Numbered from the stretch's first letter, positions 1,566-59,209 are shown. The stretch is DNA of 64,000 bases from an uncultured Gemmatimonadales bacterium (GCA_963742755.1 CAVUMU010000002.1:302265-366264), one strand, 5' to 3'. Numbers and translations: made by a program. Notes: generated from the letters alone by a model not told the origin.

Positions 1566-2147
1566 ATGAACAAGCGTCGCGCGGAGCTGGAGGTGAGTGC
1601 CGGCGGGATCGTGTTCCGGCGGGTGCCCGGTCAGGCAGCGACCTACCTGCTCATTCGGGATTCCTATAAGAACTGGGGCTTTCCCAAGGGACACCTCGAG
1701 GGCGACGAGTCGCCCGCCCAGGCCGCCATCCGGGAAACGGCTGAAGAAACGGGTCTGGAGCACTTGATCCTGCAGGGACCCATTCGGGTGATCGACTGGC
1801 ACTTCCGCTTTCGCGGACGACACATTCACAAGTACTGCCACTTCTTCCTCTTCGAGAGCCCCCACGGGGAGGCCTCTCCCCAGGTGGACGAAGGCATCAC
1901 CGACTGCCAGTGGCGCCCGTTGCCCGAAGCGCTCGATCTCCTGAGCTATGACAATGCACGCGGGGTGCTGAAGCGCGCCGGGGAGATGGTTCGCACCCTG
2001 GTGGCCATTGGAGCGGGACGGGCGGGCGGAAAGGCGGAGAGGCGGACAGGCGGACAGGCGGAGGCATCGACCCAGGCGCAGGAGGGCGAGGAGATTGAAG
2101 GAGATAGCCAACCGGCCGCCAGTCCGCCCGTCCATCCGTCCGCCTGA
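1566..2147 (+). CDS. NUDIX hydrolase with low-complexity C-terminal tail
   Basis: Nudix box GHLEGDESPAQAAIRETAEETGL. The last ~45 aa (GRAGGKAERRTGGQAEA...) are the translation of a tandem octamer DNA repeat. Confidence 0.85.
   Translation: MNKRRAELEVSAGGIVFRRVPGQAATYLLIRDSYKNWGFPKGHLEGDESPAQAAIRETAEETGLEHLILQGPIRVIDWHFRFRGRHIHKYCHFFLFESPHGEASPQVDEGITDCQWRPLPEALDLLSYDNARGVLKRAGEMVRTLVAIGAGRAGGKAERRTGGQAEASTQAQEGEEIEGDSQPAASPPVHPSA
2015..2146. repeat. tandem octamer array (GGCGGANA x5) with partial inverted copy
   Basis: GGCGGAAA GGCGGAGA GGCGGACA GGCGGACA GGCGGAGG at 2024-2063. The inverted GTCCGCC copies lie at 2116-2146. All of it is inside the Nudix ORF tail. Confidence 0.75.
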
Positions 2148-2149
2148 CC

Positions 2150-2929
2150 GTGCCCGCCATCGCTGCGTTGCTGGTCAGTCGTGCCGCGCTGATCGCTCTG
2201 CGGCGAACGCTCCCGAAGGGCGGTCCCAGCGTCGTCTCCTGCCGGAACCCCGCTGCGTTGCACCGGCTGCTTCAAACCAGGCTGGTGGATGCCGTGGTGC
2301 TGTCGCCGCAGCCGGAGCTTCTCGCGGATCTCTCCGATCTTCGATCCCACTTGCCGTATGTCCCCGTGGTTGCGTACGCCCCCTTCCGTCCCGACGATGG
2401 CGAGTTGCTCCTGGCCTGCCGCCGCCATGCGGTGGCCTCGGTGGTCGTCGAGGGAGTCGACGATCCGATCGTGGGCGATCTCGTGCTCCGTTCTTCCATT
2501 ACCGCGGAACGGCGCCGGGCGCTGGTAGATGCACCGCGCATGCTGCGGCTCACCGAGCCGCTGCAGCAGGCGGCCTGGAACCTGCTGCTGGGCGAGGTCG
2601 AGCGGCCGATGCGCACCACGCTGCTCGCGAGCCGCCTTCGGATCAGCCGGGAGCATCTCTCCCGCCAGTTCGGCGCCGGGGGCGCTCCCAATCTGAAGCG
2701 GGTCATCGACCTGACCCGCATCGCCTGCGCCGCCCAGCTGCTGGGAAACCCGGGCTACGCCGTGCAGACGGTGGTCCGAGTGCTCCACTTCTCCTCGTCC
2801 AACCATCTCGCCCGGAGTGCCCGCCGGATCGCCAATGTGCCCACCAGCGGACTGGCCGCGCTGGGCCCGCGCGGGGTGCTGGCGGCCTTCGTGAGAGGGA
2901 ATACCAGGAGCCGGGCGGTAAGACGGTAG
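2150..2929 (+). CDS. AraC-family HTH regulator with degenerate receiver-like N-terminal domain
   Basis: C-terminal AraC HTH (LASRLRISREHLSRQF ... VLHFSSSNHLARSARR). The N-terminus resembles a receiver fold but has VDAVVLSP where the phospho-Asp normally sits. GTG start. Confidence 0.7.
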   Translation: MPAIAALLVSRAALIALRRTLPKGGPSVVSCRNPAALHRLLQTRLVDAVVLSPQPELLADLSDLRSHLPYVPVVAYAPFRPDDGELLLACRRHAVASVVVEGVDDPIVGDLVLRSSITAERRRALVDAPRMLRLTEPLQQAAWNLLLGEVERPMRTTLLASRLRISREHLSRQFGAGGAPNLKRVIDLTRIACAAQLLGNPGYAVQTVVRVLHFSSSNHLARSARRIANVPTSGLAALGPRGVLAAFVRGNTRSRAVRR

Positions 2930-16152: not shown

Positions 16153-16718
16153 TGAACCGAAGTTCCAGAATCCAGGTTCCCTTGCTTGCCGCCCTGATAT
16201 TCGTGGCGGGTTGTGGCTACAACACCATTCAGACACTGGATGAGAAGGTGAATCAGGCACAGGGGCAGATCCAAACGCAGCTGCAGCGGCGCTCGGACCT
16301 CATTCCCAACCTGGTCAACACCGTGAAGGGGATTACCAAGCAGGAAGACACCGTCTTCATCTCGATCGCCAATGCCCGTGCCCGGCTCGGTGGCGCGGTG
16401 CAGTCGGGTAACGTTCCCGAGATGGCGGCCGCTAACCAGCAGCTCACCCAGGGCCTGGGCCGCCTCCTCGCCATCGCGGAGAACTATCCCCAGCTCCAGT
16501 CCAGTCAGAACTTCCGCCAGCTCCAGGAACAGCTCGAGGGCACCGAAAACCGGGTCGCAGTTGCCCGACAGGACTACAATACAGCGGTCGGGGAGTACAA
16601 CGCCTACATCCGGCGATTCCCCTACAACCTGACTGCCAAGGTTTTTGGTATGGGCAGCCCTCGGGAGTACTTCGAGGCTGCAGAGGGATCCAAGGAGGCA
16701 CCGAAGGTGAACTTCTAA
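16149..16718 (+). CDS. LemA family protein
   Basis: N-terminal lipobox/TM, then the LemA core NTIQTLDEKVNQAQGQIQTQLQRRSDLIPNLV ... ENYPQLQSSQNF. Confidence 0.9.
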   Translation: MMNRSSRIQVPLLAALIFVAGCGYNTIQTLDEKVNQAQGQIQTQLQRRSDLIPNLVNTVKGITKQEDTVFISIANARARLGGAVQSGNVPEMAAANQQLTQGLGRLLAIAENYPQLQSSQNFRQLQEQLEGTENRVAVARQDYNTAVGEYNAYIRRFPYNLTAKVFGMGSPREYFEAAEGSKEAPKVNF

Positions 16719-16838
16719 GGAGGACGGAGAAGGCGGAGAAGACGGAGGACGGAGATGTAGAAACACAAACCCCCGATGCTTGGCACCGGGGGTTCTTGCT
16801 TTTCACCTCTTCGCCTTCTCCGTCCTCTTCAGTCCGTC
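16719..16838. repeat. purine-rich short-repeat palindrome flanking the lemA terminator
   Basis: GAGGACGGAGAAGGCG (16720-16735) is the exact reverse complement of 16812-16827. The arms are made of CGGAG-type short repeats. Confidence 0.8.
16768..16804 (+). terminator. intrinsic terminator after lemA, nested inside a larger palindrome
   Basis: AACCCCCG-11 nt-CGGGGGTT followed by CTTGCTTTT. Confidence 0.65.
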
Positions 16839-17755
16839 ACCACCCCATCGGGCAGTACGTATTTGAGCGGATCGACCGGGCGTCCCTTCACATGCACTTC
16901 GTAATGCAGGTGGGGACCGGTGGCGAGCCCGGAGTTTCCAACCAGGGCGATACGCTGGCCGCGGGACACCCGCTGGCCGGTGCGGACCAGGAGTTTGGAG
17001 GCATGAGCGAACTTGGTCTCGATGCCGAAGCCGTGGTCAATAGTGATGGTGTTCCCGTAGCCCGATTCCCAACGGGCATCGGTCACGAGCCCTGCGGCCG
17101 GGGCCTCGATCGGACTGCCCATGGGGGCGGTAACGTCGATTCCCTCATGCGGGCGGGCGTAGTGCAGAATCGGGTGGGCACGCATTGAGGAGAACGCGCT
17201 GGAGAGCCAGCCCTGGGTCGGCATGATCGACGGCGTGGCGGCGAGCCGTGCCGAGTGGTAGGACAGGCTGTCGGCGGCTTCTTTGAACGAGGAAGCCAGC
17301 AGGTTGGCGCGACGAATCAGCGCGCTGAGGTCGATCCGCACCTCCGCTGAACGCCGAGCGATACCGGTCATCCCGGCCAGACCGAGGCTGGTGACGCCGG
17401 CCGGACCACCGATGCCCGCGGCCTGGACCTGGGGGTCGATCGGCTCGAGGTTGGCGAGGACCCGGATACGGGCGTCGCGTTGAGAGATCCGGGTCAGCGT
17501 ATCAGCCAGGGTGGACAGACGGCCGTTGAGCTCTCCGATTTCACGGGCCAGATTCTCGTTTTCCTGCTGGAGTCTGGCGGTGCGGGAGAGGTCGGTTGTA
17601 TGGGAAACGGTGGCGTAGCCGGCAAGAAGTACCAGAACCAGGAAGCCCGCGGCGGCGGAGGCCGCTACCCGCAGTACTCCGTAGGAGACCTCGACAATGC
17701 GCGAGGGCTCCGCCCCGTGGGGCACAAGAACCAGAGTCCAACGGCGTTTGGCCAT
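16829..17755 (-). CDS. M23 family peptidoglycan metalloendopeptidase
   Basis: HEGIDV ... NSGLATGPHLHYEV zinc motifs. N-terminal TM plus coiled coil. Confidence 0.9.
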   Translation of the reverse strand: MAKRRWTLVLVPHGAEPSRIVEVSYGVLRVAASAAAGFLVLVLLAGYATVSHTTDLSRTARLQQENENLAREIGELNGRLSTLADTLTRISQRDARIRVLANLEPIDPQVQAAGIGGPAGVTSLGLAGMTGIARRSAEVRIDLSALIRRANLLASSFKEAADSLSYHSARLAATPSIMPTQGWLSSAFSSMRAHPILHYARPHEGIDVTAPMGSPIEAPAAGLVTDARWESGYGNTITIDHGFGIETKFAHASKLLVRTGQRVSRGQRIALVGNSGLATGPHLHYEVHVKGRPVDPLKYVLPDGVVTD

Positions 17756-20683: not shown

Positions 20684-21651
20684 GCCTCCGTGTAAGCGCC
20701 CATGGCCGCGTACTTCTCCGCCCGGCGCCGGACCAGCCGGTCCGGCTTACTCTTGCGCAGCTCGGTAACATGGCGGATCAAGGCCTCGCGCAGCGCCTCG
20801 CCGGCGGCATCGGGATCGACGTGGGCGCCCCCCACCGGCTCCTTGACGATCTCATCGATAACCTTGAGCCGTAGGAGGTCTTCAGCGGTAATCTTGAGCG
20901 CCTCGGCCGCCCGCTCACGCTGAGTGGCGTCCTTCCACAGGATGGCGGCACAGCCCTCGGGCGAGATCACCGAGTACACGGAGTTCTCCAGCATCAAGAC
21001 TCGATCCGCCACTCCGAGCGCCAGCGCGCCGCCCGAGCCACCCTCGCCGATGACCACCGCCACACAAGGCGTCGGGAGCGCCGACATCTCAAGGATGTTG
21101 CGAGCAAGCGCCTCCGACTGTCCCCGCTCCTCCGCCCCCAGCCCGGGGTACGCACCCGGCGTGTCGATGAGCGTGATGACCGGGCCGCCGAACTTGGCGG
21201 CGAGCTTCATCAAGCGAAGCGCCTTCCGGTAGCCCTCGGGGTGAGGCATTCCAAAATTGCGCTTCAGGTTGTCCTTGGTGTCCCGCCCCTTCTGGTGTCC
21301 GATCACCATGACCGACACGCCCGCCAGACGGGCCCATCCGCCGACGATTGCCGGATCATCCATGTAGAGCCGGTCGCCGTGGAGCTCGATAAAGTCGGTG
21401 AAGATGGTGCTGAGGTAGTCGAGGGTGTACGGCCTGCGGGGGTGCCGGGCCACCATCACCCGCTGCAGCGGAGTGAGCTCCCGATAGATCTCGGCACGGA
21501 GCGTTTCGAGCTTGCCCTGGAGCCCCTGCAGCTCGCCGTCGATGTCGATCTGGCGCTCGGTCCCAATGCGCTTGAGATCATCGATCTGCCGCTCCAGCTC
21601 GAGGAGCGGCTTCTCGAAGTCCAAAGTGTAGGCAGAAGCCATCGGGGTCAT
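20680..21651 (-). CDS. accA: acetyl-CoA carboxylase carboxyltransferase alpha subunit
   Basis: Full-length AccA similarity (DFEKPLLELERQIDDL ... TPGAYPG...ERGQSEA). 4-nt overlaps on both sides. Confidence 0.95.
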   Translation of the reverse strand: MTPMASAYTLDFEKPLLELERQIDDLKRIGTERQIDIDGELQGLQGKLETLRAEIYRELTPLQRVMVARHPRRPYTLDYLSTIFTDFIELHGDRLYMDDPAIVGGWARLAGVSVMVIGHQKGRDTKDNLKRNFGMPHPEGYRKALRLMKLAAKFGGPVITLIDTPGAYPGLGAEERGQSEALARNILEMSALPTPCVAVVIGEGGSGGALALGVADRVLMLENSVYSVISPEGCAAILWKDATQRERAAEALKITAEDLLRLKVIDEIVKEPVGGAHVDPDAAGEALREALIRHVTELRKSKPDRLVRRRAEKYAAMGAYTEA

Positions 21652-24600: not shown

Positions 24601-25160
24601 ACCAGCCGTTCCTCCGGGAGGCCGTGTTGCTGGATCTCGAGCCAGAACCCGGCCGGTCCGAAGGTCTGGCTGAACCATTCCGCGCTGCGTCTGGCCTCCT
24701 CGAATCTCCCCTGCCGGAGATGGAGCGCCACTTCCCCTGAGAGACATGCCGCCAGGCAGACGATGCCCTCGGAGTGGGCCGCGAGTACCTCGCGGTCGAT
24801 TCGGGGCCGGCGGTAGAACCCCTCGACAAAACCGATCGAGGTGAGCCGGATCAGGTTTCGGTAGCCGGTGCGATTCTTGGCCAGCAGGACCAGATGGCTG
24901 TACGGGGCGGGCGCGCCCGGAGGCTTCTCACGGGCCGTCCGTGGGCCGAACGCAAGGTAGGCCTCGAAGCCGAGGATCGGCCGGATCTTCTGGGCCTTGG
25001 CGTGCTCGTAGAAGCTCCACGCCGCGTGCATGTTGCCGTGGTCGGTGACCGCCAGACTGTCCATGCCCAGCTTCTTGACGTGGGTAACCAGGTCAGGGAT
25101 CCGGTTGGCCCCGTCCAGCAGAGAGTATTCGCTATGGGTATGGAGATGAACGAAAGACAT
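21648..25160 (-). CDS. dnaE: DNA polymerase III alpha subunit
   Basis: PHP domain start MSFVHLHTHSEYSLLDG. 1170 aa, collinear with DnaE. Confidence 0.98.
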   Translation of the reverse strand: MSFVHLHTHSEYSLLDGANRIPDLVTHVKKLGMDSLAVTDHGNMHAAWSFYEHAKAQKIRPILGFEAYLAFGPRTAREKPPGAPAPYSHLVLLAKNRTGYRNLIRLTSIGFVEGFYRRPRIDREVLAAHSEGIVCLAACLSGEVALHLRQGRFEEARRSAEWFSQTFGPAGFWLEIQQHGLPEERLVTEGMLRLGQELGIGVVATNDAHYLKREDAESHDVLLAIGTGSDLDDPKRFRFTGQESYVKSEAEMQALFPDRPDTLANTGVVAGLCEFDFEKRYFLPEFPRPAEYPSDEALLNHLATTGAERRYGLPWPDVVRDRLAYELGVINTAGYAGYFLIVQDFIAAARERGIPVGPGRGSVAGSLVAYALGITDVDPLKFDLLFERFLNPERVSMPDIDVDFCFERRGEVIEYVRERYGRTSVGQIVTFGTMKARAAVKDVARVLRIPPGEADRITKLIPSGPAYSLTVQEAAKKVDELRDLIRDNPSYERLVKLSSRIEGISRHMSVHAAGVVIAPGPLSEYVPVCTAPTRGAGAAAEGESIITQYEMGALEKVGMLKMDLLGLKTLTVIHDAVNMIGERHGTRPDMETLTFDDPKVYELLRQGRTAGVFQFESPLATDTLRAMRCDRFDDLVASNALLRPGPLDAGMHIVFIRRKLGQEKVTYPHPALREVLEPTYGVITYQEQVMRIANVLAGFSLAEADVLRKAVGKKDQDLANQEVAKFVERAVALGHPRSMVEELGRQIVTFGRYGFNKSHSVAYSILSYQTAWLKAHYPAEFMAALLSSEIGNTDKVVQYINEARELELEILPPDVNESGFKFTVIGERRIRFGLGAVRNVGEGAIASIIGGRHKAPYGTLGELVERIDLRLCNKRVLESLVAAGACDSLGGHRKQLIEVLEPALAEAQLRNQEREAGQGSLFGEGGNDGEDGKEGVNASSRPDLPIIPDIPAWTEAERLAKEKEVLGFFISGHPLERYREEVELFGSRTTATLSEWGEQQVSVAAVVTGVKRQISKKTGKEYARLVLEDFHGTAEAIVFPDAWAKLNQTILPDAALLLTGGYSDRDRGEDQAPFIVEAARDLADLKASGAVALSLRWRSPSGLQPSALQAVAALCSAHPGPTPLYIEWSDGNGEAVRLRSRRVRVAAEDDLVRALRELLGSDSVHYVKAG

Positions 25161-25170
25161 GTAGGCCTTG

Positions 25171-25237
25171 GGGCTATGGGCTATGGGCTATGGGCTGTTC
25201 CGGTTCGACCCGCAGCCCATAGCCCATAGCCCATAGC
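25171..25237. repeat. tandem-heptamer hairpin (GGGCTAT)3 / (ATAGCCC)3
   Basis: 25-bp perfect stem (25173-25197 vs 25213-25237) with a 15-nt loop, between the hisIE stop and the dnaE start. Confidence 0.9.
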
Positions 25238-25240
25238 TCC

Positions 25241-25894
25241 TCACCGTGCTCTGGACTCCAGCTCACGTAACACGGCATCCAGCGGGACACCACGGGCCTG
25301 GAGGAGCACCAGAAGATGATAGAGGAGATCGGCCGCCTCGGACGCGAGACGTTCGTCGTCCTCCGAATTTGCCGCAACTACCACTTCCACCGCTTCCTCG
25401 CCCACCTTCTGCGAGGCCTTGCCGACGCCCTGGGCCAGCAGCTCGGCGGTATAGGACCCCCTGGGCTGGTCGGTGGCCCGCTGAGCGATGGTTCTAGCCA
25501 ACCGGCTCAGCACGTGGCCCCCCGGATCCTCTTCCGCCATGCTCCCGTCCGCCGGGCCACCCGTCCGCCCCATTACCGTCGAGAAGCAGGTGCGCGTCCC
25601 GGTGTGGCATGCCGGCCCGGTCTGTTCCACCCGATACAGGACCGTGTCGCCGTCGCAATCGAGCCGGACTTCGAGGATGCGCTGGACATGGCCGGACGTC
25701 TCACCCTTCTGCCACAGCACGCCGCGGGATCTACTGTAGTAGTGAGCCAAGCCGGTGGCGAGGGTACGGTTGAGCGCGTCCCGGTTGGCAAACGCAACCA
25801 TCAGGACGTCGCCGGAACGGCTTTCCTGGGTCACGACAGGCACTAGTCCGTCAGCACCGAACCTGACCGCCGACAGCCGTTTGTTCTCGGGCAC
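25241..25894 (-). CDS. hisIE: bifunctional phosphoribosyl-AMP cyclohydrolase / phosphoribosyl-ATP pyrophosphatase
   Basis: A HisI domain (LVPVVTQES...CHTGTRTCF) is fused to a HisE domain ([22 protein letters not shown]). Confidence 0.92.
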
Positions 25895-33420: not shown

Positions 33421-34773
33421 CTACCAGACCAGCGCCAGCGGATTTTCCAGCATCCCCTTCAGCGTCTTGAGAAACTGGGCGCCGGTCGCGCCGTCGATCA
33501 CCCGGTGGTCGCAGGACATGGTGAGCCGCATCCGGCGCCGGATAGCAACCGCGCCCTGGTGCGCCACCGGCTTCTCTGCCATGCGGCCCACCGCCAGAAT
33601 GCCGGTTTCGGGCGGATTGATGATGGCAGTGAACTCCTCGATGTCGAGCATGCCGAGGTTGGAGACCGTAAAGGTGCCGCCGGTGTACTCCTCGGGCTTG
33701 AGCCGCCGCTCCCGGGCCCGGGCGGCCAGATCCCGTGACTCGGTCGCGATCTCCCGCAGGGTCTTCTGGTCGGCGTGACGGATCACCGGGGTGATCAGAC
33801 CTTCCTCGACCGCGACCGCCATGCTCACGTGCACCTCGTTCCAGTAGCGGATGTGATCGTCCTGCCACCAGCTGTTGCAGGCCGGATGCTGCCGCAGAGC
33901 CATGGCCACGGCCTTGATAATGATATCATTGAACGAGACGCTGGCGTCTTTCCCCGCTTCCCCGCTTTCCCGCTTACCCGCCGCGCGAAGCTCTTCGCGC
34001 GCCTCGACTACCCGCTCCATGTCCACCTCGCTGGTGAGGTAGAACGTCGGGACCGGGCCGATCGACTGGGCGAGCCGCCGGGCGATGGTCTTCCGGATTT
34101 GGGTGAGCGGGACATCGGTGTAGGGGGCGCCAGCGGGGCCGCGGGGCAGCGGGGCAGCCGCAGGGCCTGACGACGCGGGTGCCGGTCGGGCGGGACTCGC
34201 CGCAACGGCCGTCTCAAGGTCACGGGCGATGATGCGGCCCTCCGGCCCGGTGCCGGCCACGGCCCCGAGATCCATTCCACGGTCCGCCGCGATCCGGCGC
34301 GCCAGTGGCGAAGCCTTGACCCTGGTGGGGGTGGCCTTGGCCCCGTTTCCTTCGCGCGCGGGCTGCTTTTCCACAGGACGCCGCTCTACCGTGGCCACGG
34401 CGGCTGGTGGCGCGGGCGGCATGGAGACCGGTCGGTCCTTCCCGGGCGATGGCTGCGTGGCTTGTGCCTCTTTGCTGGCCCGTGGCCCCGCGGCCCCGCT
34501 GTCCGTCCGCCCCACTGCCCCGCTTACATCCTCCCCTCGTTCCCCAATGACAGCAACCAGCTCCGAGACTGGTACGGTGGCGCCGGCCTCAACCACGTGC
34601 TTGAGCAGCGTCCCCGCAGCGCGGGCCACGAGCTCCATGACCGCCTTATCGGTCTCCACCTCGGCGAGCACGTCACCCACGGCGACGGTGTCGCCCTCCT
34701 GCTTTTTCCATTCGACCAGGCGCCCTTCCTCCATGGTGGGGGAGAGGGCTTCCATTACGACTTTCGTGGTCAT
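33421..34773 (-). CDS. pdhC: dihydrolipoamide acetyltransferase (E2) of the pyruvate dehydrogenase complex
   Basis: Lipoyl domain (EVETDKAVMEL), a peripheral subunit-binding domain, and a catalytic DHRVIDG. Confidence 0.93.
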   Translation of the reverse strand: MTTKVVMEALSPTMEEGRLVEWKKQEGDTVAVGDVLAEVETDKAVMELVARAAGTLLKHVVEAGATVPVSELVAVIGERGEDVSGAVGRTDSGAAGPRASKEAQATQPSPGKDRPVSMPPAPPAAVATVERRPVEKQPAREGNGAKATPTRVKASPLARRIAADRGMDLGAVAGTGPEGRIIARDLETAVAASPARPAPASSGPAAAPLPRGPAGAPYTDVPLTQIRKTIARRLAQSIGPVPTFYLTSEVDMERVVEAREELRAAGKRESGEAGKDASVSFNDIIIKAVAMALRQHPACNSWWQDDHIRYWNEVHVSMAVAVEEGLITPVIRHADQKTLREIATESRDLAARARERRLKPEEYTGGTFTVSNLGMLDIEEFTAIINPPETGILAVGRMAEKPVAHQGAVAIRRRMRLTMSCDHRVIDGATGAQFLKTLKGMLENPLALVW

Positions 34774-34793: not shown

Positions 34794-34893
34794 GCTATTG
34801 GCTATTGGCTATTGGCTATGGGCTGATCCGATGCCGACGAAGCTCCGCTTCCAGGGCGGAACAGCCAAGGGCCAATAGCCAATAGCCAATAGC
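34794..34893. repeat. tandem-heptamer hairpin (GCTATTG)3 / (CAATAGC)3
   Basis: At least 22-bp perfect stem plus an imperfect extension, with a 36-nt loop, between the pdhB stop and the pdhC start. Its unit is closely related to the unit of the 25171 element. Confidence 0.9.
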
Positions 34894-35874
34894 CTACTCC
34901 TTATACAAAACCTGATTCACCGCGCTGACCACTTTCGCCGGATCGGCCTTGGCCGCCTTCTCCAGCTGCTTGTTGTAGGGCATGGGGACATCGGCACCGG
35001 TGACCCTCAGCACCGGGGCGTCGAGCTCATCGAACACCTCGCGCTGAATGGTGTCGACCACCTGGGCCCCGATGCCGGCAAACGGCCAGCCCTCCTCGAC
35101 CACGACGCACCGGTGGGTCTTGGCCACCGAGGTGAGCACCGCTTCAGTGTCCATCGGCCGGATGGTGCGCAGGTCCAGCACCTCGGCCTTGATCCCGTCC
35201 TTGGCCAGCTGCTCCGCCGCTTTGAGCGACACGCCGACGCTCTTCGAGTGGCAGATGATCGTCACATCGCTGCCCTCGAGTTTGATGTCCGCCAGTCCGA
35301 GCGGCACGACATGCTCCCCCTCGGGCACCTCGCCCTTGAGGTTGTACAGCATCTCGCCCTCGATGAAGATGACCGGATTGTCATCCCGGATGGCGCTCTT
35401 CAGTAGCCCCTTTGCATCGGCCGGCGTCGCCGGCATGACCACCTTGAGTCCGGGGATGTGGGCGTACCAGCTCTCGAAGGCCTGGGAGTGCTGCGAGGCG
35501 AGCTGCAATGCAGATCCGCCGGGTCCCCGAAACACCGCGGGAACTCCTACCTGGCCATTCGACATGTAGCGCATCTTCGCGGCCGAGTTGACCAGCTGAT
35601 CGACCGCAAGCAGCGCGAAGTTCCAGGTCATGAACTCGATGACGGGCCGAAGCCCGACCATGGCGGCGCCCACCCCGACGCCCGCGAACCCCAGCTCGGT
35701 GATGGGGGTATCCACCACCCGCATCGGACCGAACTCATCGAGCAGGCCGCGGCTCACCTTGTAGGCGCCCTGATAGACCCCGACCTCCTCGCCCATGAGG
35801 AAGACGTTCGGGTCCCGCTGCATCTCCTCGCGAAGTGCCTGGTTGAGGGCGTCTCTATAGGTCAGAATTGCCAT
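34894..35874 (-). CDS. pdhB: pyruvate dehydrogenase E1 beta subunit
   Basis: Transketolase-like pyrimidine-binding and C-terminal domains, 326 aa. Confidence 0.93.
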   Translation of the reverse strand: MAILTYRDALNQALREEMQRDPNVFLMGEEVGVYQGAYKVSRGLLDEFGPMRVVDTPITELGFAGVGVGAAMVGLRPVIEFMTWNFALLAVDQLVNSAAKMRYMSNGQVGVPAVFRGPGGSALQLASQHSQAFESWYAHIPGLKVVMPATPADAKGLLKSAIRDDNPVIFIEGEMLYNLKGEVPEGEHVVPLGLADIKLEGSDVTIICHSKSVGVSLKAAEQLAKDGIKAEVLDLRTIRPMDTEAVLTSVAKTHRCVVVEEGWPFAGIGAQVVDTIQREVFDELDAPVLRVTGADVPMPYNKQLEKAAKADPAKVVSAVNQVLYKE

Positions 35875-35884
35875 AGGTGATCCC

Positions 35885-35948
35885 GGTGAACGGTGAACGG
35901 TAAACCGGATGCGCGGTAGCAGGCCGGTTCACTGTTTACCGTTTACGC
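35885..35948. repeat. tandem-heptamer hairpin (GTGAACG/GTAAACG units)
   Basis: GGTGAACGGTGAACGGTAAACCGG pairs with CCGGTTCACTGTTTACCGTTTAC, with transition mismatches. The right arm contains the pdhA stop. Confidence 0.8.
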
Positions 35949-42420: not shown

Positions 42421-43908
42421 TCAGCCACGCTGCCCGGCCTGGAGCGCCCTGGCGGCCGCCAGCTCCTCGGCCGTCATGTGGTACCCGGGGTGCACCGGCT
42501 TCACCATCAGATTACAGATCAACCCTATCACCAGCAGTCCGGCCAGCACGAACATCGTGACGTTATACGCCTGTGCTGTGGGCACCCCGCGCTCGATCTG
42601 GTACTCCCTGATGTAGTTCACCAGGACCGGTCCGAGCACACCCGCGGTGGACCAGGCGGTGAGCAAACGGCCGTGAATCGCGCCCACATACTGGGTGCCG
42701 AAGATGTCGGCCAGATACGCGGGGATGGTGGCGAATCCCCCTCCATACATGGTCAGGATGATGCAGAAGAGGACGACGAAGAGGGTGACGCTGCCGGTCC
42801 GGCCAGCGAACGGGGCCGTCCCGTAGAGCACGAAACCCAGGGCGAAGAAGACCAGGTAGGTGCGTTTCCGGCCGATGTAGTCGGAAAAGGAGGCCCAGCC
42901 GATCCGGCCGGCGATATTCGAAAGACTGAGCAAGGCCGCGAAACCGGCGCCGATGCTGGCAAGCTGGACTTTCTGCTCCGGAGTGAGCTGCTGCAGGGTT
43001 CCCGGAACTCCAAGCAGGCGGCCACCGAAAATCTCCTGGATCATCGGCGATGCGATACCGATGACGCCGATGCCCGCGCTCACGTTCATGCACAATACCA
43101 TCCAGAGGAACCAGAACTGCGGCGTCCGCCAGGCCCGGCTCACGTGGACGTTCCCACTGGTGATCATGCCGGTGCGCTGGGAGCTGGGCGTCCATCCAGC
43201 CGGCTTCCAGTCCGGTGGCGGCACCCGGTACCCGAAGGCCCCGGCCATCATGGTAATGAAGTAGAGGGCGCCCAGGGCGACGAAAGTCTGCCATACACCA
43301 ACTGACGTCGGAGTCGTGAAGTGGCGCATGAGGATGTCGGCCAGTGGAGCTCCGATCATCGTGCCTCCGCCGAATCCCATGATGGCCATCCCTGTCGCCA
43401 TGCCGCGGCGGTCGGGAAACCACTTGATCAGGGTGCTGACCGGTGAGATGTAGCCCAGCCCCAGCCCGCAGCCGCCGATGACGCCGGAGCCGAGCCAGAG
43501 CAGCCAGATCTGGTGGAGGTAGATTCCCAGTGCGGAGATGAAGAATCCCGTCGACCAGCAGACGGCGGCCACCACGCCGGTTCTCCGCGGTCCCACCCGT
43601 TCGACCCAGGGCCCGAACAGCGCCGCCGACGAGCCGAGGAAGACGAAGAAGAGGGTGAACATCCAGCCGAGCTCGCTGATCTTCCAGTCACAGTCGCGGG
43701 TGACGAGCAGTTGGAAGAAGCCCATGTCGGCCGGGCACGGCCTGGACTCCGTCAGGCCGACGGCCCGGCTCAGCGGCAGCCAGAACACGCTGAATCCGTA
43801 CGCCATGCCGATGGACAGGTGAATGGCGAGTGCGGCCGGAGGCACCAGCCACCGGTTGTACCCCGGCCTGGCGACGGTCCGTTCCCTCGAAAGCAATCCC
43901 GCCATCAC
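42421..43908 (-). CDS. MFS transporter, oxalate/formate antiporter (OFA) family
   Basis: 12-TM MFS. The N-terminal YNRWLVPPAALAIHLSIGMAYGFSVF is typical of the OFA family. Confidence 0.85.
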   Translation of the reverse strand: MMAGLLSRERTVARPGYNRWLVPPAALAIHLSIGMAYGFSVFWLPLSRAVGLTESRPCPADMGFFQLLVTRDCDWKISELGWMFTLFFVFLGSSAALFGPWVERVGPRRTGVVAAVCWSTGFFISALGIYLHQIWLLWLGSGVIGGCGLGLGYISPVSTLIKWFPDRRGMATGMAIMGFGGGTMIGAPLADILMRHFTTPTSVGVWQTFVALGALYFITMMAGAFGYRVPPPDWKPAGWTPSSQRTGMITSGNVHVSRAWRTPQFWFLWMVLCMNVSAGIGVIGIASPMIQEIFGGRLLGVPGTLQQLTPEQKVQLASIGAGFAALLSLSNIAGRIGWASFSDYIGRKRTYLVFFALGFVLYGTAPFAGRTGSVTLFVVLFCIILTMYGGGFATIPAYLADIFGTQYVGAIHGRLLTAWSTAGVLGPVLVNYIREYQIERGVPTAQAYNVTMFVLAGLLVIGLICNLMVKPVHPGYHMTAEELAAARALQAGQRG

Positions 43909-44017
43909 GATTCTCCTGGGTTATGTTCCTGCGGAGGCGACGGCGGGTGTCATTTCCCCCGCGGCGATTTCAGCTACGAAGGTACAGACGACCCTATTCC
44001 GGGACCAGAGCACCGCA

Positions 44018-44626
44018 ATGATTCAGCTCCCTCCCTCTCTTCTCATCACCTCGGCGGCCGCGGCGTTGACTGTGGCCATGGGCTGCTCCGGACGGGGCCA
44101 GGCGGCCGCGAGTGCCCCGGCTCCGGCGCCACCGGCCCGAGAGGCGGCCACGCCGGCTCCAGGAGCCGGCGACACCGCGGCCGTGCCGTCCTGGATGACC
44201 GTGGACAGTGCGGCCAGGGTGGTCACATTGTCGCTCGAAATTACCGCCCCACCCGGAGCGCCGTCGGCACTGATCAACGGCTATCGCGCCGGAGAGGCCC
44301 GCATCGTCGTGCCGCTCGGCTGGACGGTCAAATGGGATTGGCGCTCGGCCGACTCGACCGCCCCCCACAGCCTGGTGGTGATGGTGCAGCGGGAGAAGAT
44401 TCCGCTGGAGGGCGGCCGCGCCTCGTTCAGCAATGCCATGACCCGGGCGGTTGTCGAGGGACTCCGTCCGGGCCAGAACGATCAGACCATCTTCGTTGCC
44501 GATGAAGCCGGCTGGTACTGGCTGCTGTGCGGGGTACCGGGGCACGCCATCAAAGGCGAATGGCTGGAGCTACGGGTGGATCCGGAGGCGAAGCTGCCGA
44601 ACGTGGTCGTCAAGAACAAGGCGTGA
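44018..44626 (+). CDS. sulfocyanin-like cupredoxin lipoprotein with Glu at the axial-ligand position
   Basis: Lipobox VAMGC. Copper ligands are APHSLVV and CGVPGH-AIKG-E(W), where sulfocyanins have GMW. The Glu codon is at 44558-44560. Confidence 0.7.
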   Translation: MIQLPPSLLITSAAAALTVAMGCSGRGQAAASAPAPAPPAREAATPAPGAGDTAAVPSWMTVDSAARVVTLSLEITAPPGAPSALINGYRAGEARIVVPLGWTVKWDWRSADSTAPHSLVVMVQREKIPLEGGRASFSNAMTRAVVEGLRPGQNDQTIFVADEAGWYWLLCGVPGHAIKGEWLELRVDPEAKLPNVVVKNKA

Positions 44627-44686
44627 GCGGTAAGCGGTAAGCGGGACACAGCCCCTCCTCCCCTTCACCGCCTCACTGCTTACGCT
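44621..44686. repeat. tandem-heptamer hairpin (GTGAGCG/GTAAGCG units)
   Basis: GCGTGAGCGGTAAGCGGTAAGCGG pairs imperfectly with CCGCCTCACTGCTTACGC. Both convergent genes stop inside the arms. Confidence 0.8.
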
Positions 44687-45869
44687 TTTCACCTAAAAGT
44701 CTCTCAATTTCGACCTCGAACTCCCGCGCCTGCCGCTGGTGTTGGTCCCCTGCCGCCAGGCCGTGGAAGCCGGCGTGCACCCGGCGCACCCGGCCATCGC
44801 GACCCAGAAAGACTAGCGTCGGAAAGGCACCGGCCCCCTGAAGCTGGGGCAGCGCCGCCTCGATGCCCTCGACGTCGTTGGTTCCGGCCAGGAGCAGGGG
44901 GAAGGGAATGCGGAACTTGTCGCGGTAGCGGCGCACCAACGGCGCGTCCACGGCCGGGTCGCCGGTGACCTCGAAGGCCAGACCCACGATCTCCAGTCCC
45001 CGTCCACGATACCGATTATAGAGCTCGATCAGCCCCGGCATTCCTTCGTGACAGGTGGGGCACCAGGTCCCGAAGATGTCGACCAGGACGACTTTTCCCT
45101 TGAAGCGCGGGTCGTCGTTCCCCACCAGGCGGCCCTGAAGATCGGGGAAGCGAAACCGGAACGGCGCGGTGGTGTCGGCAGAGGTGATCTCGGTCGGAGA
45201 CTTGAGATGGGCCGCTCCGGTGCTGCGCACCGCCTGCCACGGTGTCTGGGTTCTCAGTCCGGCGTGAAAAATCCCCCGCAGCGTATCGCCGTGGAGCTTG
45301 CCGGTGATGAGGTAGACGAACGAGCCGTCGAAGTATCCGATCGCGAAGCTGTCAGCCGAAGCGGTCCCCGAGAACGGCCCATAGTCCGAGGTGCTGGAGA
45401 TGAGGGTTCCCTCGATGCCGCCGGGTCCGTTGCGAAACTCGAAGACGCGCGGGCTGGTTTCCAGGTCCTGGAAGAAAGTCGCGTCCCAGCGGCCCACCAG
45501 CTTCCTGGAGGCCTTACTGATCGGCCAAGGGCGGCGCGCTGCCCGGAATGGAATGGTGCGCGGCCCGTTGCTGCCGATGTTGCGGTAATATCCGATCAGC
45601 GAGTCGCGCCGGACGGCGGCCTTTATGGTCGCAGCATAGTCGGCGATTTCGAGAACCACGCTGTCGCCTTCCACTCGCACGGCCGAGAACGGCTGGGACT
45701 TCTGCCCGTTCCAAAGCCTCCCCAGCCAGTCGCCATCTTCATTGTGCCCGACTTGCACCGTAAACGGCAGGGGACCGCCTGCGAGGTCCAGCACGGCCCG
45801 CCAGGTCCCCCTCGGCGAAGAAACTACCGCCAGGCCAAGCGCGGCCTGGATCGCCAGGACGAGCATCAT
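44673..45869 (-). CDS. TlpA/redoxin-family thiol:disulfide oxidoreductase with N-terminal extra domain
   Basis: The C-terminal thioredoxin fold carries WCPTC. ATGATG overlap with the upstream stop. Confidence 0.8.
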   Translation of the reverse strand: MMLVLAIQAALGLAVVSSPRGTWRAVLDLAGGPLPFTVQVGHNEDGDWLGRLWNGQKSQPFSAVRVEGDSVVLEIADYAATIKAAVRRDSLIGYYRNIGSNGPRTIPFRAARRPWPISKASRKLVGRWDATFFQDLETSPRVFEFRNGPGGIEGTLISSTSDYGPFSGTASADSFAIGYFDGSFVYLITGKLHGDTLRGIFHAGLRTQTPWQAVRSTGAAHLKSPTEITSADTTAPFRFRFPDLQGRLVGNDDPRFKGKVVLVDIFGTWCPTCHEGMPGLIELYNRYRGRGLEIVGLAFEVTGDPAVDAPLVRRYRDKFRIPFPLLLAGTNDVEGIEAALPQLQGAGAFPTLVFLGRDGRVRRVHAGFHGLAAGDQHQRQAREFEVEIERLLGEKRKQ

Positions 45870-46696
45870 TCCGCCGGCTGGTCGGGCACGACTTGGAGGC
45901 CGCCCCCCGAGTAGCGCTCTCCTGCCCGGATAGCGGCAGGCACGGTGTTGCCCCGCCATGGCGCGGGACAGGGGTATACCGAGCTGTAGGCGCAGAACGG
46001 ATTCCGGGCCCGGTTGAAGTTCAGCCGGAACAGGCCGTTTGAAAGCGGGTGCAGGCTGACGAATCGGCCTGCCGGATAGGTCCCGTCTCCGTTGCTCTCG
46101 TCGCGGAAGTAGATCTCCAGGTCCGACTCATTACCGCCCGCAAACGGGATACGCAGCACGCGAAGCGAGGTCCGTCCGCCAAGCGGCACGACGACGCTAC
46201 CCACCTCGGTAGCCTCGACCTCGATTCCGTCGGAGGCAAGGACGCGTATTGACTGAGGAGTCTTGAGTCGGATGAGAGGCCCAGTAAACACCATCGAGGG
46301 GTCGTAATCGTAGTAGCCCGGCGGCTCTTTGCCGGCCTGGTCGGTGAACACGGACAGAACCGTCCCCCGCTGAGAGCCGGTGAGATACAGCGCATATTTC
46401 CCGATCCGATACGGCCCGCCACGGCCGATGGGTCGCTTGTCGTCTGACCCTTCGAGAACGACGCCTGTGCCACTCGGGTAGACTCGATACTCATCGATCC
46501 CCGGCAGCGGAATGTCCGCATCCCCCGGTCCCAGTCGGAGCCCATCGCCGACCTTTTGCCGCGCAACGGCCGACAGCGGCGAGTTGAGTCCCTTCTTGAG
46601 CCAATCAACGTAGCCGGTTCGTTCCATGACCACGTCAGGCGGCGCCTGTGCCGCGAGCGTCGATGCAAGAAGAACCAACGGAAGAAAGCGAGTCAT
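45866..46696 (-). CDS. DUF1684 domain protein
   Basis: Signal peptide, and the motif NFNRARNPFCAYSSVYPCPAPWRGN typical of DUF1684. Confidence 0.75.
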   Translation of the reverse strand: MTRFLPLVLLASTLAAQAPPDVVMERTGYVDWLKKGLNSPLSAVARQKVGDGLRLGPGDADIPLPGIDEYRVYPSGTGVVLEGSDDKRPIGRGGPYRIGKYALYLTGSQRGTVLSVFTDQAGKEPPGYYDYDPSMVFTGPLIRLKTPQSIRVLASDGIEVEATEVGSVVVPLGGRTSLRVLRIPFAGGNESDLEIYFRDESNGDGTYPAGRFVSLHPLSNGLFRLNFNRARNPFCAYSSVYPCPAPWRGNTVPAAIRAGERYSGGGLQVVPDQPAE

Positions 46697-48104: not shown

Positions 48105-48145
48105 GGGCGTAAGACCCAGGTAAAGCGCCCAGGAACAAGGTCTAG

Positions 48146-48182
48146 GTGAAGACGTCTACGGTATTCTAGCAGACGTCTTCAT
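48146..48182. repeat. hairpin between convergent genes built on the palindromic unit AGACGTCT
   Basis: TGAAGACGTCT-13 nt-AGACGTCTTCA. A third GACGTCT copy lies at 48186-48192. Confidence 0.7.
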
Positions 48183-48192
48183 CTGGACGTCT

Positions 48193-56062: not shown

Positions 56063-56097
56063 GGGTCCAGGGTCTAGAGTCTGGGGTCTGGAGTCTA
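56063..56097. repeat. five tandem heptamers (GGGTCCA GGGTCTA GAGTCTG GGGTCTG GAGTCTA)
   Basis: Exact period of 7 in the gap between the HD gene and the DUF4286 gene. I found no inverted partner. Confidence 0.75.
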
Positions 56098-56178
56098 TTG
56101 CAGCGACCTGGGTCGTTGGCGCCTCGCATGGGAGTGGTTCCTGCGGTAGCTGCCCCGTTGGTTCGGCGGCGCGGTCCG

Positions 56179-57422: not shown

Positions 57423-57983
57423 GTGTTCGAAAGTGTAAAGGCCAGGCTGGAAAAGTTGTTTCGCGACCACTCCCGGTCCGACCCGCGGGCCTACCTGGCG
57501 GGCCTCCGCGAGGCTCTCCTGGAGGCCAAGGTGGGAGTCGGGGCGATGAAGAGCGCGCTCTCTGCCACCGAGCGCGAGCTGCTGAACGAACGGCGCCAGT
57601 TGGCCGACGCCGAGCGGAGAGGCCGGCTTGCGGCGGAGCTGCCTGATGCGGAAACGGCAGCGCTCGCGGAACGCTACGCGCTGAAGCATCGCGAGCGCGT
57701 CGCTGTCCTGGAGCGGAAGCTGGTGGTCCAGCGGGATGAGCTGGTGCTGGCGGAACGTGAGGTCGAGGAGATGCTCATTCAGGTGCGTGCCGGCCGGCCG
57801 GGGCTGGGGGCCGAGTCCATCGCGGCCGCGTGGAGGGACCTCGAGTCCGCCGGAGGGGCTCGACCCGACCTGGCGCCGGAGGACGAACGGCTTCGAGCCG
57901 AGGCCGACCGCAAGCTCAAGGAGCAGGCAGTGGAGGCGCAGCTGGCTTTCCTTAAATCAAAACTCAAAAAGCGCGAACGGTAA
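57423..57983 (+). CDS. coiled-coil protein, PspA/IM30-like
   Basis: Predicted to be largely alpha-helical with heptad-like charge pattern. GTG start with no clear RBS, so the boundary is uncertain. Confidence 0.4.
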   Translation: MFESVKARLEKLFRDHSRSDPRAYLAGLREALLEAKVGVGAMKSALSATERELLNERRQLADAERRGRLAAELPDAETAALAERYALKHRERVAVLERKLVVQRDELVLAEREVEEMLIQVRAGRPGLGAESIAAAWRDLESAGGARPDLAPEDERLRAEADRKLKEQAVEAQLAFLKSKLKKRER

Positions 57984-58082
57984 ATAGTGAGCGGTAAACG
58001 GACGACTCCTGCGTTCCTGGCGCTGCTGAGCCTCGCGGCAGCGTGTATTTCCTGTGCACCCTTCACGGTTCACCGTTCACGC
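57973..58082. repeat. degenerate tandem-heptamer inverted repeat (GTAAACG/GTGAGCG units)
   Basis: The left arm GCGAACGGTAAATAGTGAGCGGTAAACGG pairs with the right arm CCTTCACGGTTCACCGTTCACGC. The element overlaps the end of one gene and the signal-peptide region of the next. Confidence 0.55.
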
Positions 58083-59108
58083 CTTTCAGTCCCATCCCCG
58101 ACGGTCACTCCCACGCATGGGCTCAAGCTGGCGCACACTTACAGCATCGTCGCCTATGACTCCATCACCGGCGACCTCGGGGTAGCGGTACAGTCCAAGT
58201 TTCCCAACGTAGGTGGAATTGTGCCGTGGGGGCGGGCCGGCGTCGGCGCGGTGGCGACCCAGAGTCTGTCGAATACCGACTACGGTGAGCGGGGGCTCGA
58301 CCTCATGGCCCAAAGCGCCACAGCGGAGGAGGCGCTGCGCATCGTGATGCGGACCGATACCATGCTGCAGGATCGACAAGTCGGCATGGTGGATGCCCAG
58401 GGGAACGCGGCCAGCTTCACCGGAGATCGAACCTTTGATTGGGCCGGAGGTCGTGTCGGGTCCGATGCGCCTGCCCGGAGCCCTTCGCCAGTGCGCAGAG
58501 TACCCTCTACGCCGGGACGGCCTGGCGGCCCGATCGGCGGAAAGGGCGAGGTCATCGTGGGCCGGGGTTACGCCGCCCAGGCGAACATCATGGTGTCGGA
58601 TCAGACGGTCAGGAATCTGGCGGAGACCTTCGAACGGACCAGCGGCAGCCTGGCCGACCGGTTGATGGCCGCGCTCAAGGCCGGACAGGCCGGCGGTGGC
58701 GACAAGCGCGGTATGCAGTCGGCTGCCCTCCTGGTGGTCCGAAAGAACGGCGGGTATTTAGGCGCCAACGATCGCTTCATCGACATCCGGGTCTACGACG
58801 CCAGGGATCCCATCGCAGAGCTGGAGCGGCTCCTGGCCCTGCACCGGCTGCACTTCTTCCCCAGCGAGCCGCGCGACCTGATTCCTCTCGGGCCGGCCCT
58901 GGTCGCCAGGCTGGAGCCGATCCTGTTGAGCGAGCCACAAGGCCAGCGGGAGAAGTGGCTCAAGCAGAGGCAGGGCAGGGCCACGCCGGCGTTTCTCCAG
59001 GCGCTGCAGAATTTCATGTACTGGGAGAACTACGACGTGCGGGTGCGGATGGACGGAAAGATCGATCGGGTGGTGCTGGAAGACATCTTAGAAAAACGTA
59101 AGCGGTGA
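57987..59108 (+). CDS. DUF1028 (Ntn-hydrolase fold) lipoprotein
   Basis: Lipobox LAAAC. YSIVAYDSITGDLGVAVQSKFPNVGGIVPWGRAGVGAVATQS matches the DUF1028 core. Confidence 0.8.
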   Translation: MSGKRTTPAFLALLSLAAACISCAPFTVHRSRLSVPSPTVTPTHGLKLAHTYSIVAYDSITGDLGVAVQSKFPNVGGIVPWGRAGVGAVATQSLSNTDYGERGLDLMAQSATAEEALRIVMRTDTMLQDRQVGMVDAQGNAASFTGDRTFDWAGGRVGSDAPARSPSPVRRVPSTPGRPGGPIGGKGEVIVGRGYAAQANIMVSDQTVRNLAETFERTSGSLADRLMAALKAGQAGGGDKRGMQSAALLVVRKNGGYLGANDRFIDIRVYDARDPIAELERLLALHRLHFFPSEPRDLIPLGPALVARLEPILLSEPQGQREKWLKQRQGRATPAFLQALQNFMYWENYDVRVRMDGKIDRVVLEDILEKRKR

Positions 59109-59209
59109 GCGGGCAAGAAAGAGCGTGAGCGGGAAAAACGGGTGCCAGGCGATTCGTTGCGCTTTAACTCCCGCTTACCGCTTACGCTGTTTTTTCCCCG
59201 CTTACGCTT
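59097..59209. repeat. nested double hairpin of GTAAGCG/GTGAGCG units with a T-run
   Basis: CGTAAGCGGTGAGCGGG and AGCGTGAGCGGG pair with CCCGCTTACCGCTTACG and CCCCGCTTACGCT. TGTTTTTT follows the inner hairpin. Confidence 0.8.

Follow-up and report, generated by a model that had tools for sequence, protein, structure and literature searches.

Inverted arrays of a stop codon-bearing heptanucleotide at gene ends in an uncultured Gemmatimonadales bacterium

Why should two convergent genes end inside the two arms of one hairpin? The question arises at positions 44621-44686 of a stretch of 64,000 nucleotides (nt) from an uncultured Gemmatimonadales bacterium (GCA_963742755.1 CAVUMU010000002.1:302265-366264), hereafter the window, where tandem units of the type GTRARCG, each containing TGA or TAA, face their inverted counterparts between a cupredoxin gene and a gene for a TlpA-like thiol-disulfide oxidoreductase. 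A preliminary description of this DNA had proposed that such arms act as three-frame stop cassettes and supply the stop codons of flanking genes. We found that the arms do supply stop codons, with the stop-bearing strand facing inward. We read the focal element, with roughly an even chance of being right, as one copy of a set of gene-end palindromes, similar to repetitive extragenic palindromic (REP) elements or to terminators, whose arms are 7-nt microsatellites. The elements most likely belong to a wider dispersed family in Gemmatimonadales and other high-GC environmental bacteria. Their anatomy, polarity, period, core conservation, position at gene ends and vocabulary of protein tails were observed directly.

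The sequence at 44621-44686 consists of GCGTGAGCGGTAAGCGGTAAGCGGG, a 14-nt loop and CCTTCACCGCCTCACTGCTTACGC. The parts of the hairpin and the two genes that end in it are as follows (-stop after a peptide marks its termination codon; ORF, open reading frame).

44618..44688, no strand: focal hairpin, with A-rich flank, 5′ arm, loop, 3′ arm and T-rich flank, defined from the sequence and the RNA fold
44623..44643, plus strand: 5′ arm, GTGAGCG GTAAGCG GTAAGCG; its stops at 44624, 44631 and 44638 occupy three frames
44660..44692, minus strand: opposite arm, GGTGAAAAGCGTAAGCAGTGAGGCGGTGAAGG in minus-strand reading, with degenerate units and stops in two frames; it codes for the TlpA-like tail EKRKQ-stop
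43823..44626, plus strand: cupredoxin gene (SoxE/sulfocyanin domain, Pfam), start codon uncertain; its TGA at 44624-44626 belongs to the first unit of the arm
44673..45959, minus strand: TlpA-like thiol-disulfide oxidoreductase gene (Redoxin/TlpA-like, Pfam); its stop, TGA 44675-44673, lies within the arm

The true start of the TlpA-like protein is probably about 30 codons inside the ORF 44673..45959. For the stops at 44624, 44631 and 44638, the computed reading frames were 2, 0 and 1; for 35887, 35894 and 35901, in another array of the window, they were 1, 2 and 0, exactly as had been described. The two convergent genes do terminate in the arms of one hairpin, the cupredoxin gene at TGA 44624 and the TlpA-like gene at TGA 44675-44673. 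On the plus strand the predicted RNA fold has an energy of -35.7 kcal/mol (z = -4.65), while on the minus strand z is only -1.6. Whichever strand is read, the focal copy ends in a U-rich tail, which corresponds to Lys codons of the gene on the other side. Synteny of the TlpA|SoxE junction is kept among orthologous loci, at which the hairpin ranges from a minimal stem of 7-8 bp (locus L201) to three-unit arms and the units differ between genomes. A phase-variable contingency locus was considered and rejected: in the one pair compared, a strain 98.3% identical (L204) has the same arms, with unchanged copy number, and two substitutions in the loop.

The focal element is not alone. Six tandem GTRARCG doublets were found in the window, compared with 0.01 expected from shuffled sequences, and none of 100 shuffles reached six. 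They are grouped in four inverted-repeat loci, at 44621-44686 and at the following three.

35884..35948, no strand: GTGAACG/GTAAACN hairpin between pdhA (stop 35931-35929) and pdhB (start 35874), both genes on the minus strand; both arms cover three frames
57975..58082, no strand: hairpin at the junction of a coiled-coil gene and a DUF1028 gene; its 5′ arm includes both the coiled-coil stop (57981) and the GTG at which DUF1028 starts (57987)
59096..59207, no strand: compound two-tier hairpin after DUF1028 (stop 59106-59108), with a fold of -59.2 kcal/mol and z = -5.0

All five genes previously named as ending inside an arm do so, namely cupredoxin/SoxE, TlpA-like, pdhA (TGA 35931-35929, minus strand), the coiled-coil gene (TAA 57981) and DUF1028 (TGA 59106). 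Pfam identities near the arrays comprise a SoxE-type cupredoxin, Redoxin/TlpA-like, E1 alpha (pdhA), E1 beta, E2, DUF1028 and a POT transporter. Three-frame stop coverage is found in five out of eight window arms, and a stop on the strand leaving the hairpin in none of the eight. The claim that the palindrome repeats the three-frame stops on the opposite strand stood for 35884-35948 and 57975-58082 only; the focal right arm covers two out of three frames, because one of its units is 8 nt long, and both arms of 59096-59207 cover two. In the latter hairpin, the outer 3′ arm CCGCTTACGCTTT (59199-59207) is the reverse complement of the last codons of DUF1028 itself, and the inner stem is followed by TTTTTT. 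In 57975-58082, both the loop and the 3′ arm fall within the region coding for the DUF1028 signal or pro-peptide.

The window comes from a metagenome-assembled Gemmatimonadales genome. A homologue search with its DUF1028 protein gave a protein of 100% identity on a 387-kb contig and relatives assigned to Gemmatimonadales, while searches for exact matches to the TlpA-like and pdhB proteins gave none. To place these copies in a broader context, we used a Gemmatimonadales set of 1.3 Mb, made up of the window and 80 orthologous DUF1028 loci taken from metagenome-assembled genomes, and a metagenome set of 120 independent loci found with the pattern (GTRARCG)3. In the 1.3 Mb of the former, Tandem Repeats Finder (TRF) retrieved 171 arrays of period 7, against 66 of period 8, 48 of period 11 and 12 of period 5, and 30 out of 34 tandem-arm hairpins in these loci have period 7. 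GTRA chains numbered 75 at a spacing of 7 nt and 0-1 at each of the remaining spacings in the range 4-12; the same test gave 1-6 for control tetramers, except T[AG]AG, which overlaps GTRAG units and gave 36. The most frequent units are GTGAGAG, GTGAGCG, GTGAACG, GTAAGCG and GTGAGAA, and the 3-nt spacers vary between unit families (GAG, GCG, ACG, AAA, AGG, ACA). Chains with fully variable spacers are rare (7 out of 181). In terms of density, the 64 kb of the window hold four GTRA-type and at least five other tandem-arm hairpins, all of them at gene ends, and more than 120 metagenome loci carry arrays.

The orientation of the arms is nearly invariant. The GTRA arm lies 5′ of the TYAC arm by 57 to 0 in the Gemmatimonadales loci, 49 to 3 in the metagenomes and 10 to 0 in viral contigs, that is, in 116 arrays versus 3. 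Constraint within the unit was assessed on 201 units from arrays defined by TRF rather than by the GTRA core. At the positions G, T, R, A, n, n, n, units departed from the consensus of their array 6, 8, 39, 6, 13, 26 and 39 times, respectively. Since 34 out of the 39 changes at R are exchanges between A and G, T-R-A mostly stays a stop codon. The G preceding it, although outside the stop codon, is as conserved as T and A, which indicates that stop maintenance alone is an insufficient explanation.

Each of the nine intergenic hairpins in the window has a gene stop within an arm or no more than 7 nt from its foot. Among the metagenome loci, 33 have the stop of the upstream gene within the array and 11 have it 3-10 nt before the array; in only 19 is it 11-300 nt upstream (6 at 11-30 nt, 6 at 31-60 nt, 4 at 61-120 nt and 3 at 121-300 nt). 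The association between stops and arrays is, therefore, far from random. Hairpins are always downstream of at least one gene, with the stop inside the array in about half of the independent metagenome cases, and none of 25 independent metagenome hairpins is flanked by a divergent gene pair. Apparent divergent cases in the Gemmatimonadales loci are all due to a mis-called coiled-coil gene. The flanks are moderately enriched in A upstream (3.6 per 12 nt) and in T downstream (3.7), against 2.1 expected.

One explanation is that the three-frame stop cassette is itself selected, catching read-through or frameshifted ribosomes, in a 65% GC genome where out-of-frame stops are rare, before these enter the hairpin or the following gene. 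Other tandem-arm hairpins of the window bear on it.

2025..2150, no strand: hairpin with octamer arms (GGCGGACA) that contain no stops; a NUDIX ORF passes through and stops at 2145
16706..16841, no strand: hairpin of GGAGAAG-like units between the convergent LemA and M23 peptidase genes, both of whose stops are 10 nt into the arms
25170..25240, no strand: period-7 hairpin GGGCTAT/ATAGCCC, abutting the hisIE stop (25241-25243), with stops in the 3′ arm and not in the 5′ arm; z = -9.3
34794..34894, no strand: period-7 hairpin GGCTATT/AATAGCC, bordered exactly by the pdhB stop (34896-34894) on one side and the E2 spacer on the other; z = -9.4

The conservation of T2 and A4 fits selection on the cassette, as does the restriction of R3 to A or G, since either base completes a stop codon. 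The inward orientation of the stop-bearing strand (116 versus 3), the stop-free leaving strand and the occurrence of solitary arrays on gene stops point the same way. The stop-less hairpin at 2025-2150 provides a contrast case: the NUDIX ORF (1566-2147) reads through it and thereby receives a repeat-encoded C-terminal tail of about 40 amino acids (aa). However, G1 is equally conserved outside the stop codon, TAG is hardly used, the period-7 hairpins at 25170-25240 and 34794-34894 lack 5′-arm stops, and three out of eight window arms cover two frames only. Three units contain no second in-frame stop and would thus make a poor backup against read-through, and selection against rare frameshifted ribosomes would be very weak. 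We consider selection for the cassette possible but unlikely.

If arrays overlap gene ends, how much of the protein do they write? The Lys/Arg-rich C-termini of the five proteins had been described as repeat-encoded, with a comparison of orthologues as the way to find out. This comparison bears the claim out for pdhA, TlpA-like and the coiled-coil protein, and overturns it for DUF1028 and the cupredoxin. The pdhA core ends in ELYTHVYA(D/E/N)x, and tail-less orthologues end in VYANP, VYADS or VYAE; tails include EENSVNGKQ (window), EEREQ, EDERER, ENVNGGE and EESVNSKQ, the window's NSVNGKQ being read from the units, and a tail-less relative has a 42-nt spacer without repeats. Likewise, the TlpA-like core ends in EIE(K/R)LLxE (LLGE in the window, LLAE in the shortest orthologues) and is followed by EKRER (the commonest tail), EKRKR, EKRKQ (window), ENSVNSKR or ESVNGER, so that KRKQ belongs to a variable part. 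Most coiled-coil orthologues end in GKQ(P)-stop with an overlapping stop/start RTGA, and KKRER-stop is derived in the lineage of the window. In DUF1028, LEDILKKRKR-stop is kept in orthologues without the hairpin and with other codons (AAG AGA AAG CGA TAG in L039), while distant homologues end in LEDIRKKHQQW or LEDLRRRFG; its basic tail is, therefore, ancestral. Cupredoxin orthologues end in KKRA-stop, KKKA-stop or KNKA-stop, that is, K-x-A-stop is conserved and only the stop is in the arm.

Metagenome ORFs with an in-array stop fall at offsets +1 (13 ORFs), +8 (3) and +15 (15; VNGER-stop, VSGKR-stop). Stops in unit 1, 2 or 3 give the tails x-stop, (G/R)ER-stop and V(N/S)G(E/K)R-stop, respectively, and this vocabulary recurs in the pdhA, TlpA-like and DUF1028 orthologues.

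At the N-terminal side of DUF1028, the ORF (57987-58120; near position 10000 in L001-L080) is open back through the 3′ arm and the loop into the 5′ arm. Its GTG start sits in a repeat unit, the loop codes for the hydrophobic core of a signal peptide and the 3′ arm for an insert of 7-14 aa (PFTVHRS, LTSHLSPLT).

According to the reading that we favour, that of gene-end palindromes with microsatellite arms, an element consists of an A-rich flank, (G-T-R-A-n-n-n) x 2-8, GGG...loop...CCC, (n-n-n-T-Y-A-C) x 2-8 and a T-rich flank, both arms being 7-nt microsatellites of complementary unit type that drift independently. Each unit contains TGA or TAA and 7 is not divisible by 3, so that three units suffice to give a strand entering from either side stops in every frame; the leaving strand carries none. 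Any ORF reaching the element closes within six codons. In a genome whose genes leave hardly any space between them, the element could for this reason lie across, or extend into, the final codons of coding sequences. Where stops in three frames follow directly, a gene could lose its own stop almost neutrally, and termination could shift into the array in any of three phases. Such migration of stops may have given rise to the recurrent tails xA-stop, (K)RER-stop/KRKR-stop and SVNG(K/E)R-stop on unrelated proteins. A role in termination or coupling is suggested by the anatomy: some copies look like bidirectional intrinsic terminators or 3′-end stabilisers, and others lie between cistrons (pdhA|pdhB, coiled-coil|DUF1028), where ribosomes that stop in the 5′ arm would have to melt the hairpin and could thereby couple translation of the downstream gene. 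The elements may originate by local amplification and inverted copying of gene-end sequence.

Several findings weigh against this reading. Partnerless solitary arrays are on gene stops as often as hairpin arms are (15 out of 37 versus 12 out of 34), so the hairpin is possibly not the essential part. A clear U-tract is present in a minority of copies only. GTRA-type stems are imperfect, with paired units 87% identical, and three folds have z of only -1.6 to -2.3, out of a range of -1.6 to -9.4 (-30 to -71 kcal/mol) for the window hairpins. Variant units are not mirrored between the arms, the identity of paired units being 0.868 as against 0.869 when unit order is shuffled. Moreover, the conservation of G1 at the level of T2 and A4 is not accounted for by stop maintenance, the unrelated loops described below leave the presence of one unit type at many loci unexplained, and period 7 is explained by nothing that we found.

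Compensatory mirroring of unit variants between arms was rejected on the same identities (0.868 versus 0.869), which make neither continuous selection for pairing nor ongoing template switching evident and indicate that the arms drift independently. Copy number differs between the arms of a hairpin. The unit type is common to both arms and co-varies across orthologues (GTGAGAG/CCTCTCA, GTGAACG/GTTCACC, GTGAAAA/CCTTTCA).

The constraint on G1 and the fixed period could be understood if the arrays were sites for a multimeric RNA- or single-stranded DNA-binding factor reading GURA (or UYAC) every 7 nt, or the product or target of an enzyme acting on TYAC, for instance a Y1 transposase of the IS200/IS605 or RAYT type (RAYT, REP-associated tyrosine transposase), with the stops incidental. 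In its favour, conservation extends to G as well as to T and A, the 3-nt spacers differ from one unit family to another, units follow each other at exactly 7 nt, solitary arrays are common, and in one (NNNTCAC) x 8 array every spacer is different. Known precedents are HutP, which reads UAG at 7-nt spacing, and TRAP, which binds GAG repeats; the IS608 target TTAC resembles TYAC. However, no candidate binding protein was identified and no transposase was seen beside the arrays, chains with fully variable spacers are, as counted above, rare, and the tie to stop codons needs a separate explanation. We regard such sites as quite unlikely. The stronger proposal of a dedicated system in Gemmatimonadota and other soil bacteria is doubtful; in it, a multimeric binding factor or a unit-adding or unit-targeting enzyme would install and keep three-frame stop cassettes with their inverted partners at gene ends, link the termination of translation to RNA structure and continually rewrite C-termini and signal-peptide regions.

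How, then, did the arrays arise? At the coiled-coil|DUF1028 junction, arrays start exactly at a native GTGA. In those orthologues among L001-L080 that lack arrays, the two genes overlap by RTGA (caGTGAgc or ccATGAcc), a classic arrangement for translational coupling, and arrays separate them. In L001, L006 and L041, the array (AGGCGGTA)n comes after AGG CGG TAA. Orthologous sites, filled or empty, are polymorphic for presence/absence. Of the 31 ORFs that terminate in an array, 18 do so in the second or third unit. Seeding at the native stop can, therefore, be only part of the account, and we rejected it as the sole origin. The possibility that (GAGGTGA)n mimics a Shine-Dalgarno sequence was also dropped, as other common units do not have that complementarity.

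Template switching in replication, by which an arm can form in a single step as an inverted copy of adjacent sequence, has been described as a source of hairpins (PMC8794818). The outer 3′ arm at 59199-59207, the reverse complement of the DUF1028 end, resembles such template-switching hairpins; the tandem 7-nt period and the conserved GTRA core are not accounted for by this process. This leads to a neutral explanation, in which slippage amplifies 7 nt at a stop, template switching inverts the copy and the result persists where harmless. Arrays that begin exactly at the native caGTGAgc overlap of array-less coiled-coil|DUF1028 orthologues, or that follow AGG CGG TAA, speak for it, as do an outer right arm that reverse-complements the gene end and arms that differ in copy number. 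On the other hand, the core positions are clearly constrained, the 18 out of 31 ORFs just mentioned end outside the seeding phase, one unit type is found at many unrelated loci and taxa, slippage leaves the specificity for period 7 unexplained, and copy number was unchanged between the strains 98.3% identical. A purely mutational by-product is, in our view, very unlikely.

The polymorphic sites could instead reflect a classical mobile element, such as a miniature inverted-repeat transposable element (MITE) or a REPIN (a hairpin formed by two REP sequences), transposing as a unit into gene ends. The hairpin 34794-34894 sits exactly between a TAG and a conserved spacer, and in three relatives its site is empty and the spacer is conserved. 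A pair of hairpins in one metagenome locus shares a 55-nt loop, and other palindromic repeats are nested in loops. We compared all loops of at least 25 nt, taken from 86 hairpins detected by regular expression, in an all-versus-all BLAST search. Similarity was restricted to overlapping detections, orthologous copies, nested foreign repeats and that one pair (L090), so that loops are otherwise unrelated between loci. Comparison of filled with empty sites revealed no target-site duplication, no conserved internal sequence was seen, arm copy number is variable, and at least one left arm consists of native coding sequence. A MITE or REPIN was rejected as the principal explanation because of the unrelated loops, and we leave it a slim chance.

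In the L090 locus, the two hairpins (746-835 and 1930-2033) are 1.2 kb apart, with a loop segment 98% identical over 55 nt and two versus five GTGAGCG units; one 3′ arm there is the (NNNTCAC) x 8 array with all spacers different.

The elements invite comparison with several known systems. REP elements, the bacterial interspersed mosaic elements (BIMEs) built from them and REPINs, in Enterobacteria and Pseudomonas, are extragenic palindromes at gene 3′ ends and between cistrons, often close to stops, whose hairpins stabilise upstream mRNA or affect termination or translation. Like them, the elements described here are many dispersed imperfect palindromes at gene ends (at least nine hairpins in 64 kb). 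Unlike in REPs and REPINs, copies have only a 7-nt unit in common, the arms are tandem with variable copy number, the loops are unrelated and the arms overlap coding ends and supply the stop; the head is GTRA, not GTAG, and no partner RAYT was seen, as judged on 64 kb of genome. The resemblance to bidirectional Rho-independent terminators lies in a GC-rich stem with A- and T-tract flanks between convergent genes, the Lys codons of the focal copy forming the opposite U-tract, and in a position downstream of gene 3′ ends, never between two starts (0 out of 25 divergent). In contrast to such terminators, the loops measure 14-90 nt, stems are mismatched about every 7 bp, many copies have no U-tract or lie in operons, and the stop is inside the stem.

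Cyanobacterial short tandemly repeated repetitive (STRR) sequences are dispersed, intergenic tandem heptanucleotide arrays with several unit families. The present arrays share the dispersed tandem heptanucleotides, the several unit families and the bacterial setting, and differ in phylum and units; we know of no report of fixed inverted pairing, a stop-codon core or gene-end overlap in STRRs. The DNA uptake sequences (DUS) of Neisseria and the uptake signal sequences (USS) of Pasteurellaceae are fixed 10-12-mers tied to natural competence, and inverted pairs of them double as terminators. An over-represented short motif in inverted pairs just 3′ of genes is common to both, but the elements analysed here have a 4-nt core, variable spacers and a tandem 7-nt period. 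Integron attC sites have the consensus 5′-RYYYAAC...GTTRRRY-3′ and an integrase nearby; they were rejected on polarity, which here is the reverse (5′-GTRA...TYAC-3′). No match was obtained in Rfam at the gathering score over the 64-kb window, and no comparable repeats were found in the searchable literature.

Should the description hold, this would be a gene-end repeat of a kind not previously described, in one bacterial order and probably in other high-GC soil lineages. Non-coding repeats would then set the ends of proteins, seeding short lineage-specific tails, and even parts of signal peptides, on unrelated proteins. Annotation of metagenome-assembled genomes would be affected, given that gene ends, starts and 'hypothetical' small ORFs here would be derived from repeats. 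The elements could also serve as a natural system to study what burying a stop codon in a stem does to termination, to mRNA stability and to translational coupling, and the strict period of 7 with a conserved G before TRA may point to unknown biochemistry.

Beyond the Gemmatimonadales loci, (GTRARCG)n arrays also occur in locus L230 and in 46 other contigs classed as viral or prophage, some of them from isolate genomes. L230 (IMG/VR UViG_2883497546_000001) carries, at 687-800, 17 x GTGAGCG followed by 4 x GTGTGACG, 20 nt past a stop. A BLAST search for an annotated-phage relative of an array-bearing viral contig gave no match.

A second, unrelated palindromic repeat (containing GGATCCTTCGCTGCGCTCAGGATGACA and reading SFAALRMT or VILSAAKDL) is nested in many loops. 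It was located in loops near position 10000 in L003, L014, L017, L020, L040, L041 and L062, 3′ of DUF1028 in L021 and L035, and also in L161 and L196, and it gives an in-frame ATG at some loci.

Further repeats were noted in the window. Within dnaE (21648-25187, minus strand), 22307-22395 form an in-frame inverted repeat whose arms measure 35 nt and contain heptamer-like units (GGGAATG, GGGAAGG). It is located in the linker between the HHH_6 and OB-fold domains, where a hairpin element appears to be tolerated in an essential gene. The coding region of the E2 acyltransferase contains complementary octamer arrays, TTCCCCGC (33950-33981) and CAGCGGGG (34131-34158), 149 nt apart. Period-7 repeats GTCTAGA/GTCTGGG are located beside a gene end at 56066-56100, and a hairpin with 18-nt arms at 48140-48188 has its foot 7 nt from a gene stop at 48193.

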